Shown: positions 48,555 through 49,941 of the stretch, piece after piece
How the letters are laid out: every line of letters starts with the position of its first letter
Position numbering within the stretch: the first letter of the stretch is position 1
Assembly (NCBI GenBank): GCA_946625165.1
Contig: CAMOSR010000001.1
Coordinates: forward strand, 7,744 to 71,743
From: an uncultured Bacillota bacterium
GTDB taxonomy: Bacteria; Bacillota_I; Bacilli_A; RF39; UBA660
Direction of reading: 5' to 3'
DNA: 64,000 nucleotides
Program-made: the position numbers and the translations under genes
Notes under the pieces: generated by a model
Seen by the model: only the letters and a program-made list of their open reading frames with translations
Told to the model about the DNA's origin: nothing
Database searches by the model: none

Positions 48555-48932
48555 TTATGAACATGTGTCACTTTCTAAACCACATCTAACTGGTTTAAAT
48601 TCGTATTTGTATTTATTACTAGTAAAGGTAATGATAACATAGCCACATATGTCCTCACTGGATTTGCGTGGATCTTTTATATTTTTATTTGTTAGAAAGC
48701 CAGAATTTTGTAATTTTTTTATACTTATATTACAAGTTTCTTCTGGAAGCTGTTTAGAATTACTAGACATATAAGTTCTGGCGGCTTGTTCAATGAGGTT
48801 AACTTGTTCTTTGTATGTTTTTTCTTTTGAGTCATTTATTATTCCACCTACTGCTGGAACGGTAATCATAGTTATTATTCCAATAATTGTAATTACGGCT
48901 AAAAGTTCAATTAGTGTAAATCCTTTTTTCAT
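48555..48932 (-). CDS. ComGC-like type IV major pilin / pseudopilin
   Basis: N-terminus [27 protein letters not shown]; paralogous to 23338-23691. Confidence 0.65.
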   Translation of the reverse strand: MKKGFTLIELLAVITIIGIITMITVPAVGGIINDSKEKTYKEQVNLIEQAARTYMSSNSKQLPEETCNISIKKLQNSGFLTNKNIKDPRKSSEDICGYVIITFTSNKYKYEFKPVRCGLESDTCS

Positions 48933-48973
48933 ATTATCACCTATTATTATTATAATTTAATAGGCATTGCTTG

Positions 48974-49618
48974 TCAATTGAAGGCCTTTCTTAGTTTAGT
49001 TAGGGCTTTTTGTTCCTTTCTAGAGACGTCTACCTGAGATAGACCTAAATTATTTGCAATTTCTGTTTGGGTTAAGTCTTCAAAATATCTTTCTAGCATA
49101 ATGCTTCTTTCTGGTTCACTTAAATTTTCTATTTCATCTTTTAAGGCTAGTAATGTGTCGTAATCTGTTTGTTTATCAGCGACAATTTCATGCATGGACA
49201 GGTCGTCAGCAAATAATTCGTCCATGCTAAATGGATCGGTATAGTTTAATATTTGTTCAACTATTCTCTCATCTATTTCTAAATAGTTACTTAACTCTTT
49301 ATTAGATGGCACATGCATAAAGATTTGGGTTAAGTGGTTTCTTGCGTCTTCTATTTTGTTTTTTAATCTAGCCATGTCTCTACTTAATTTAACGGTGTGA
49401 TCTTCTCTTACAAATTTGCTCATTTCACCATAGATATATTGATAGGCGTAACTTGTAAATTTTGTCCCTTTAGTTTCATCATAGTTTTTATAAGCTTCTA
49501 TCATTCCAATACATCCTACTTGAAATAAATCTTCTTTATTTTTATATTTTGTAAATTTATTTGCAATACTATAGATAAAACTTTCGTTTCTTAAAATTAT
49601 TTCGTTTATATCTTCCAT
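48974..49618 (-). CDS. sigF: Sporulation sigma factor, SigF/SigG-like (sigma-70 regions 2 and 4)
   Basis: DLFQVGCIGMIEAYKNYD...F.SYA..I.GEM region 2. LSEPERSIMLERYFEDLTQTEIANNLGLSQVDVSRKEQKAL region 4. Confidence 0.7.
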   Translation of the reverse strand: MEDINEIILRNESFIYSIANKFTKYKNKEDLFQVGCIGMIEAYKNYDETKGTKFTSYAYQYIYGEMSKFVREDHTVKLSRDMARLKNKIEDARNHLTQIFMHVPSNKELSNYLEIDERIVEQILNYTDPFSMDELFADDLSMHEIVADKQTDYDTLLALKDEIENLSEPERSIMLERYFEDLTQTEIANNLGLSQVDVSRKEQKALTKLRKAFN

Positions 49619-49629
49619 ATCTGCCTCCT

Positions 49630-49941
49630 TTAAACACCAATTAAATTAACGGCAGTCATCTCATCAGTTACATAGTTTAGTTTTTTTATTAAACCTATTT
49701 GACTCGGATTTACACATATAAAGCTTTTTTCACATATTTTGTAGCATTTTTCCAGGGTTTTTATGCCGCTTTTGTCAATATAATTTAAGTTTTGGATGTT
49801 TAATACAATGTTTTGAATACCAACATTATTAATTAGTGTGATTACTTCTTTATTTAGTTTACTTCTTGTCTCTTTTGTCAGTTTTCCAAATAATCTAACA
49901 AATAAAATGCCCATTTTAGAGTCTATATCAATGTCTAACAT
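49630..49941 (-). CDS. spoIIAA: STAS-domain anti-sigma-factor antagonist SpoIIAA
   Basis: 103 aa; ILFVRLFGKLT...IVLNIQNLNYIDKSGI aligns to SpoIIAA, including the phospho-Ser position. Confidence 0.7.
   Translation of the reverse strand: MLDIDIDSKMGILFVRLFGKLTKETRSKLNKEVITLINNVGIQNIVLNIQNLNYIDKSGIKTLEKCYKICEKSFICVNPSQIGLIKKLNYVTDEMTAVNLIGV

Follow-up and report, generated by a model that had tools for sequence, protein, structure and literature searches.

How can sigma-F be restrained and made forespore-specific when the switch described as its control is missing? The question is raised by a spoIIA-like locus in a stretch of 64,000 nucleotides (nt) of DNA from an uncultured Bacillota bacterium (GTDB lineage Bacteria; Bacillota_I; Bacilli_A; RF39; UBA660), taken from contig CAMOSR010000001.1 of assembly GCA_946625165.1 (positions 7,744 to 71,743 of the forward strand). 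This whole stretch is hereafter called the window, and coordinates refer to its first letter unless another locus is named. Control by SpoIIAA, SpoIIAB and SpoIIE is the textbook case of partner switching, and the three genes are treated as core and near-universal in endospore formers. In the window, the gene of a SpoIIAA-derived STAS protein is directly followed by that of a short SigF-type sigma factor, with no spoIIAB between them. We consider it fairly probable that spoIIAB disappeared from the spoIIA operon in an ancestor common to RF39 and its neighbours, that the phosphorylation-based switch is gone, and that control now relies on Spo0A-dependent transcription together with a further input, the STAS protein having changed its role while remaining under selection.

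Part of this picture is already on record. In its statements on the order RF39, a KEGG-orthologue inventory (PMC10868615, Microb Genom 2024) gives spoIIAB and spoIIE as reduced or absent, and predicts that RF39 sporulates with 'markedly different regulation'. The absence of spoIIAB is thus not new; those statements do not describe how the operon is built, that its STAS protein has lost the serine and its sigma factor is short, or that the 0A box is conserved and a pilin gene inserted. Turicibacter, a cultured relative, retains SpoIIAA, SpoIIAB and sigma-F, and the paper presenting the classifier SpoMAG lists spoIIAB among nine genes found in all predicted spore formers.

An operon without spoIIAB

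All genes of the locus lie on the minus strand, in the order FtsK/SpoIIIE-type translocase, STAS protein, sigma factor, pilin, spoVAC-spoVAD-spoVAEB and uvrA. The STAS gene (49630-49941, 103 aa, TAA stop at 49632-49630) ends 11 nt before the ATG of the sigma gene at 49618 (48974-49618, 214 aa), and the intergenic gap (49619-49629, AGGAGGCAGAT) carries a GGAGG ribosome-binding site at 49628-49624. Such a gap holds no open reading frame (ORF) and leaves no room for spoIIAB. A preliminary description of the locus had read this spacing and the ribosome-binding site from the sequence, had seen no GHKL kinase gene between the two ORFs, and had placed a pilin gene (48555-48932) between the sigma gene and spoVAC-spoVAD-spoVAEB, all of which agrees with the ORF map and the searches reported here. 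It had also called the first two genes 'fused'. This word suits their direct adjacency across 11 nt, but not a gene fusion, since the ORFs are separate, adjacent genes in different reading frames.

Searches by tblastn with two clostridial SpoIIAB queries returned nothing in the window or in the RF39-type loci L001-L009 and L013; the sole matches below an E value of 0.01 were the two clostridial source loci themselves. Pfam scans, with thresholds mostly at E 1e-5, gave no HATPase family match among the window ORFs of at least 90 aa, and no HATPase-type gene was seen near the sigma gene in any related locus mapped.

The arrangement recurs widely. When one genome per species was scanned, clear relatives of the sigma factor over its full length turned up at 13 loci. 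The order STAS, sigma, pilin, spoVAC-AD-AEB, uvrA is common to L001, L003, L004, L005 and the further species L024-L026, while in the more distant L006, L007, L009 and L013 (sigma identity 39-47%) the sigma gene is likewise preceded by a STAS gene, at a distance of 5-14 nt, a range that includes the gap in L024. Altogether, a STAS gene followed by the sigma gene, with no HATPase gene, is found in L001, L003-L007, L009, L013, L018/L019 and L024-L026. Two loci, L002 and L008, have the sigma gene and no STAS gene. L002 (3070-3262) keeps the 0A box, the -10-like element and, up to GGTGATGATAT, the STAS leader, from which it passes straight into the ribosome-binding site of the sigma gene; this retention of promoter and leader up to the STAS start indicates that the STAS ORF was cleanly deleted. 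As a control, the same search gave the clostridial loci L011 (Epulopiscium) and L012 (Cellulosilyticum) with their spoIIAA-spoIIAB-sigF, as well as L010, a SigG locus. The relatives are uncultured gut Bacilli: L004 belongs to Candidatus Coprosoma intestinipullorum, whose genus is, by its description, GTDB CAG-822 in the order RF39, and for the others the labels read uncultured Bacilli, Erysipelotrichaceae, Tenericutes or Firmicutes.

The spoIIAB-less layout is lineage-wide and not an assembly error. Two sheep-rumen metagenome scaffolds from other assemblies (L018, L019) are identical across the 1,500 bases compared, which cover STAS, sigma and pilin. These independent scaffolds, along with a gene order that recurs in many divergent relatives, rule out an assembly artefact. 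With the 11-nt gap and the same layout in relatives, they also rule out a missed or frameshifted spoIIAB in the gap, which the preliminary description had raised as a way in which its reading could fail; the pairing that it noted in one genome is found across the lineage, with spoIIAB in none of the loci mapped. The window itself stems most probably from an RF39-type inhabitant of the sheep rumen. In another RF39 species (L024), a 225-aa gene without Pfam match (8840-9517) stands between ftsK and the STAS gene; the window has no counterpart.

A SpoIIAA descendant lacking the phospho-acceptor serine

The STAS protein matches PF01740 with an E value of 2.4e-9, and its closest solved relatives by sequence are SpoIIAA proteins of Geobacillus and Bacillus. 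Its AlphaFold2 model has a predicted local distance difference test (pLDDT) score of 94.4, and the top Foldseek matches of this model are SpoIIAA 1THN_B and 1TH8_B (template modelling score 0.86; 32% identity to 1THN_B), both taken from structures of the complex with SpoIIAB. As modelled, the protein keeps an intact SpoIIAA fold. The NCBIfam profiles are matched less strongly, with 34.7 bits for TIGR02886 (SpoIIAA; cutoff 114.75) and 37.3 bits for the superfamily TIGR00377 (cutoff 53.45).

What has changed is the site on which the switch depends. The phospho-acceptor motif reads DKSG in the window, against DSSG in SpoIIAA 1TH8 and DASG in the variant 1TID; comparison of the latter two identifies the first serine as the phospho-acceptor, Ser58 in Bacillus subtilis SpoIIAA. 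Among 32 RF39-type STAS proteins, this position is occupied by Glu in 13, Lys in eight, Leu in three, Asp and Gln in two each, and Met, Tyr, Ile and Ser in one each. The residues flanking the lost serine, D56 and G59, are nearly invariant in the same proteins. The canonical SpoIIAA motif ELDHH, whose Asp23 contacts SpoIIAB, is replaced by KLTKE in the window protein. Judged from its sequence, the STAS protein descends from SpoIIAA but is no longer phosphorylatable.

It has nevertheless not been left to drift in this sub-lineage. Ratios of non-synonymous to synonymous substitution rates (dN/dS) among the window, L001 and L005 are 0.07-0.09 for STAS, compared with 0.08-0.11 for the sigma factor and 0.05-0.07 for spoVAC; the STAS gene is thus under strong purifying selection and must retain some function. 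This function is dispensable in some relatives, as indicated by the relaxed dN/dS of 0.36 in the Coprosoma pair (L003/L004) and by the loss of the gene in two lineages.

A shortened SigF-type factor

The sigma protein contains sigma-70 regions 2, 3 and 4. Its best PDB match, with residues 4-208 of the query aligned to 30-241 at an E value of 1e-33, is 1L0O_C, the sigma-F of the SpoIIAB complex. Among NCBIfam models, SigB/F/G scores 164.6 bits, SigF 149.3, SigG 126.4 and 115.9, and SigB 105.3; the curated cutoff of the SigF model TIGR02885 (321.45 bits) is not reached. Pairwise identity does not discriminate, with 32-33% to a clostridial SigG (L010) and 31-32% to SigF (L011, L012), and the choice between SigF and SigG therefore rests on the NCBIfam scores and on synteny, the loci retrieved from RF39 including no sigE-sigG locus. 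In B. subtilis, the spoIIA operon, which begins with the SpoIIAA gene and ends with sigF, immediately precedes spoVA. The position of the window gene between a SpoIIAA-like gene and spoVA is the same, which supports SigF orthology.

In alignments, the N-terminal 25-37 residues present in clostridial SigF and SigG are missing. The short form is not peculiar to the window: of 279 homologues, nearly all among the 120 listed measure 211-222 aa, mostly 213-215 aa, and NCBI names those among the matches listed just 'sigma-70 family'. As far as sequence allows it to be classed, the protein is a SigF-like, shortened sigma factor. The preliminary description had reached the same assignment, which is upheld by the solved relative and by the SigF model scoring above the SigG and SigB models; the protein does not fall with the extracytoplasmic function (ECF) group, the placement that the description had considered damaging to its reading.

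Two further observations concern the ends of this gene. Public gene calls (L018, 7219-7887; L019, 5587-6255) give the sigma factor as 222 aa, by reading through its TGA stop. Genetic code 4, which such read-through would suggest, was considered and rejected: TGA is the stop of nine of the 56 genes, Trp is encoded by TGG throughout, and the long conserved ORFs show no interruption. The window, at 30% G+C, fits the standard code or code 11. In the Coprosoma-type loci (L003, ~5995-6001; L004, ~868-874), the sigma ORF lacks an ATG, GTG or TTG start; ATT and ATC codons follow the GGAGG, and the first canonical start would cost 38 residues.

Transcription signals

A perfect Spo0A box, TTTGTCGAAA, lies on the minus strand at 49989-49998, 48 nt 5' of the STAS start codon, in the 131 nt that separate the FtsK/SpoIIIE-type gene from the STAS ORF. 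The window contains two such boxes, against 0.13 expected. The other one (8908-8917, minus strand) is located inside a pilin-like ORF (8573-9022). The core of the box, TGTCGAA, is found at the same place in L001-L009, L013 and L018, including the STAS-less loci; in each RF39-type locus, some 50-60 nt separate it from the first start codon downstream. The -10-like element TGCTACACT (49957-49965, minus strand), of the extended type TGnTAnAnT, sits 26 nt downstream of the box, with no recognisable -35 element. TGnTAnAnT or TAnAnT occurs at the matching position in L001, L002, L005-L007, L009 and L013, and TACCAT in L003/L004. A 0A box with a -10 element and no -35 resembles Spo0A-activated promoters such as that of spoIIG. 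The layout is that of an activator-dependent promoter, and its dependence on Spo0A is suggested by the conserved box.

The pilin gene and the spoVA operon downstream appear to have promoters of their own. A consensus housekeeping promoter, TTGACA-17 nt-TATAAT (48949-48977, minus strand; 12 of 12 positions in a promoter scan), is predicted ahead of the pilin gene, and its -35 hexamer contains the TGA stop of the sigma gene. Hexamers and 17-nt spacing are invariant in L001-L005, while the spacer sequences vary. The pilin stop codon is overlapped by a predicted intrinsic terminator (48541-48576, minus strand), made of the hairpin AAAGUGAC...GUCACUUU and a U run (-13.1 kcal/mol, z -2.5), and relatives have hairpins of differing sequence with a T run at the same position. 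No terminator was seen between the sigma and pilin genes, so that read-through from the sigma unit would stop at that of the pilin gene.

Ahead of spoVA, a candidate forespore promoter GCATA-N18-CATAATA (48511-48540, minus strand) matches the sigma-F/sigma-G consensus of B. subtilis. The consensus sequences of these two factors were found to be nearly identical in a study of Clostridioides difficile. The motif on its own is not significant, with one match in the window against 0.8 expected; its support comes from positional conservation, as G[CT]ATA-N16-18-CATAATA is present at the same position in L001-L005. The locus can accordingly be divided, tentatively, into three transcription units. 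STAS and sigma would be read from the 0A-box promoter, the pilin gene from the consensus promoter as far as its terminator, and spoVAC-AD-AEB, with a terminator as well, from the forespore-type promoter.

Proposed control of sigma-F without the switch

Since the antagonist has no acceptor serine and spoIIAB has been lost, the classical SpoIIAA-SpoIIAB-SpoIIE switch cannot control this sigma factor as described, and partner switching is presumably lacking. The preliminary description had offered a different partner-switching logic as one explanation. This fits the replacement of the serine (by Lys here; Ser persists in one of 32 relatives) and the reduction or absence of spoIIAB and spoIIE reported for RF39.

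According to the reading that we favour, spoIIAB would have been deleted from between the STAS and sigma genes in an ancestor shared by a wide range of uncultured gut Bacilli, and the STAS protein would subsequently have lost its phospho-acceptor serine. A Spo0A-dependent promoter, consisting of the 0A box and the extended -10 element, would drive the remaining two-gene operon. Control of the sigma factor would most likely combine this Spo0A-dependent transcription with some post-translational input, and the STAS protein may act on a partner other than the kinase or contact the sigma factor directly. The pilin gene would be a gene with a housekeeping promoter lodged between two sporulation operons, and spoVA would be transcribed from its own forespore-type promoter.

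The comparison with the spoIIA operon of Bacillus and Clostridium shows how much would have been kept. The STAS gene, with its SpoIIAA fold, still stands first in an operon that ends with a SigF-type gene, a Spo0A box lies upstream and, as in B. subtilis, the spoVA operon lies downstream. Unlike in that SpoIIE-dependent system, there is no spoIIAB gene, Lys stands in place of the acceptor Ser (in relatives E, K, L, D and others), the N-terminal 25-37 residues of the sigma factor are missing, and both proteins stay under the NCBIfam equivalog cutoffs. A further difference is spoIIE, given as reduced or absent in the RF39 statements of PMC10868615.

Several points weigh against this reading. The STAS score is under the NCBIfam SpoIIAA cutoff and the sigma score under the SigF cutoff. 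RsfA of Mycobacterium tuberculosis is reportedly a non-phosphorylatable STAS antagonist that still acts through an anti-sigma factor, and with this precedent the loss of the serine does not prove that partner switching has been lost. The promoter assignments (0A box, pilin, spoVA) are predictions from sequence. The SpoIIAB search covers the 64-kb window and ~10-20 kb of flanks in relatives, genome-wide absence being taken from the literature alone; the statement in PMC10868615 is made at the level of KEGG orthologues, and its wording for spoIIAB and spoIIE is 'reduced presence or complete absence'. Finally, SpoMAG assigns RF39 metagenome-assembled genomes (MAGs) a 0% sporulation probability, and sporulation in RF39 is unproven.

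The alternative that survives best, although we regard it as unlikely, is that SpoIIAB or another anti-sigma factor is encoded elsewhere and that the STAS protein antagonises it without serine phosphorylation, through its redox state, a ligand or its abundance. RsfA, a serine-less, redox-sensitive STAS antagonist of the GHKL-type anti-sigma factor UsfX, is a precedent, and like it the STAS protein of the window would not be regulated via serine phosphorylation. The strong purifying selection on STAS, the preserved SpoIIAA fold and the near-invariance of D56 and G59 are what such an antagonist would show, and the DNA examined is a small part of the genome. Unlike the RsfA-UsfX pair, however, no GHKL-type anti-sigma gene was seen in the window and flanks, where no HATPase-type ORF is found either. 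The contact motif ELDHH is not retained, L002 and L008 have an intact sigma gene and no STAS gene, and the passages on RF39 in PMC10868615 give both spoIIAB and spoIIE as reduced or absent.

It is also conceivable, but improbable, that the STAS protein itself binds the sigma factor, as an anti-sigma factor or a chaperone, in a two-component module. The tight translational coupling, with gaps of 5-14 nt maintained across deep divergence, speaks for such a pair, as do the equal dN/dS of the two genes and the loss of the sigma N-terminal segment in the same lineages. Yet the sigma factor can evidently do without its neighbour, being intact in L002 and L008 where STAS is lost, and we know of no precedent for a STAS protein that binds a sigma factor directly.

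That these genes are decaying sporulation remnants of a non-spore-forming lineage, spoIIAB loss being one step of an erosion with no coordinated function left, is highly improbable: the reduced sporulation gene set given for RF39 in PMC10868615, the 0% of the classifier, the loss of STAS in some relatives with the relaxed Coprosoma pair (dN/dS 0.36), and the Coprosoma sigma gene devoid of a canonical start codon would all agree with it, but STAS, sigma and spoVAC are under strong purifying selection (dN/dS 0.05-0.11), relatives conserve the 0A box as well as the forespore-type promoter, the genes are intact across many divergent loci, and the window holds several further sporulation genes.

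Loss of spoIIAB followed by Spo0A-dependent control, as favoured here, has consequences beyond this locus. A large and abundant, though uncultured, gut lineage that keeps sigma-F, Spo0A boxes, spoVA and further sporulation genes, has dropped the kinase, and still selects for a serine-less antagonist indicates that the module can exist without the switch. RF39 genomes will be mislabelled by any annotation pipeline or sporulation classifier built on spoIIAB or on the cutoffs of SigF and SpoIIAA. A bolder version, which we hold to be unlikely, is that RF39 and its neighbours run their forespore sigma factor without SpoIIAB and SpoIIE, the serine-less SpoIIAA descendant having been rewired to regulate a shortened sigma-F directly or in some other new manner. 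If true, this would constitute a second, simpler way of controlling the first compartment-specific sigma factor.

The pilin gene between sigF and spoVA

The 125-aa product of the pilin gene (48555-48932, minus strand) carries a class III signal peptide, MKKG/FTLIEL, in which G occupies position -1, F +1 and E +5, and exceeds the thresholds of N_methyl (27.7 bits against 21.2) and TIGR02532 (33.6 against 16.3). It stays below those of the ComGC equivalog (38.2 bits against 75) and of GspG. Its AlphaFold2 model (pLDDT 88) consists of a 51-residue N-terminal helix and a small sheet. The G/FTLIE signal with Glu5, the long N-terminal helix with a small beta-sheet, and a C-terminal cysteine are shared with ComGC and with PilA and PilJ of C. 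difficile; unlike those, the gene stands alone between sigF and spoVA with its own promoter, outside any comG or pil operon.

The preliminary description saw this pilin as tethered to the forespore sigma operon, a view that is not sustained. With an invariant housekeeping promoter and a terminator of its own, it forms a separate transcription unit outside the sigma module; a forespore-type promoter serves spoVA separately; and the gene is one of two or more pilin paralogues dispersed over the window. The insertion is limited to the sub-clade of L001-L005, L018 and L024, while in L007-L009 spoVAC directly follows the sigma gene with no pilin between. The gene also evolves faster than its neighbours (dN/dS 0.23-0.28). 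No evidence for a functional link between pilin and sporulation was seen at the locus. It is an independent gene, probably strongly expressed from its housekeeping promoter. A role as membrane anti-sigma factor, by analogy with ECF pairs, was considered and rejected, as no more than MKK would lie in the cytoplasm, the protein has an unmistakable prepilin motif, and the promoter is a separate consensus one.

One paralogue (23338-23691, minus strand, 117 aa; 35% identity over 86 residues) is also stand-alone; it starts within the stop of the enolase gene, the two codons overlapping as ATGA, and downstream of it lies a hairpin with a T run. Taken with the pilin-like ORFs of the window and the consensus promoter at the sigma locus, this copy suggests that pilin genes are scattered and placed behind strong expression signals. 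Two pilin-like ORFs lie at 8573-9022 and 9036-10211, the latter with a DUF6273 domain, next to a lone T2SSE ATPase gene of the PilB/ComGA type on the opposite strand (10287-11624). A ParA/TadZ-like ATPase (222-953) and a TadE-like protein (1324-1668) are encoded near the start of the window (within 1-2911), and the 64 kb showed neither a PilC gene nor one for a prepilin peptidase.

Flanking genes and further sporulation genes

Upstream of the operon, the FtsK/SpoIIIE-type DNA translocase is encoded at 50073-52271 (minus strand), with Pfam FtsK_alpha, FtsK_SpoIIIE and FtsK_gamma matches on the identical locus L018; a site scan places a terminator-like hairpin with a T run at its 3' end (50063-50092). 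Downstream, spoVAC (48056-48496), spoVAD (47079-48059) and spoVAEB (46729-47079), all on the minus strand and with clear family matches, are closed by a predicted terminator at 46690-46706.

Other genes in the window with a link to sporulation are SpoIIIAH-like, GerM-like, D-Ala-D-Ala carboxypeptidase and deacetylase genes. The SpoIIIAH-like gene (29892-30395, minus strand) is alone beside a class II aminoacyl-tRNA synthetase gene of the Lys/Asp/Asn type, without the rest of the spoIIIA operon, and is followed by the GerM-like gene, with its Germane domain (28581-29528, minus strand). The carboxypeptidase (40937-42148) and polysaccharide deacetylase (42151-42903) genes are located near uvrA. 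Farther off, upstream of the PNPase gene, lie minus-strand genes for a VirD4/TraG-like type IV coupling protein (55141-56583) and a HerA-like ATPase (59683-61221), as well as for a surface protein that has four SpaA-type repeats and weakly matches a thioester domain (62019-63884). These genes (55141-63884) hint at a conjugative or adhesion-related region.

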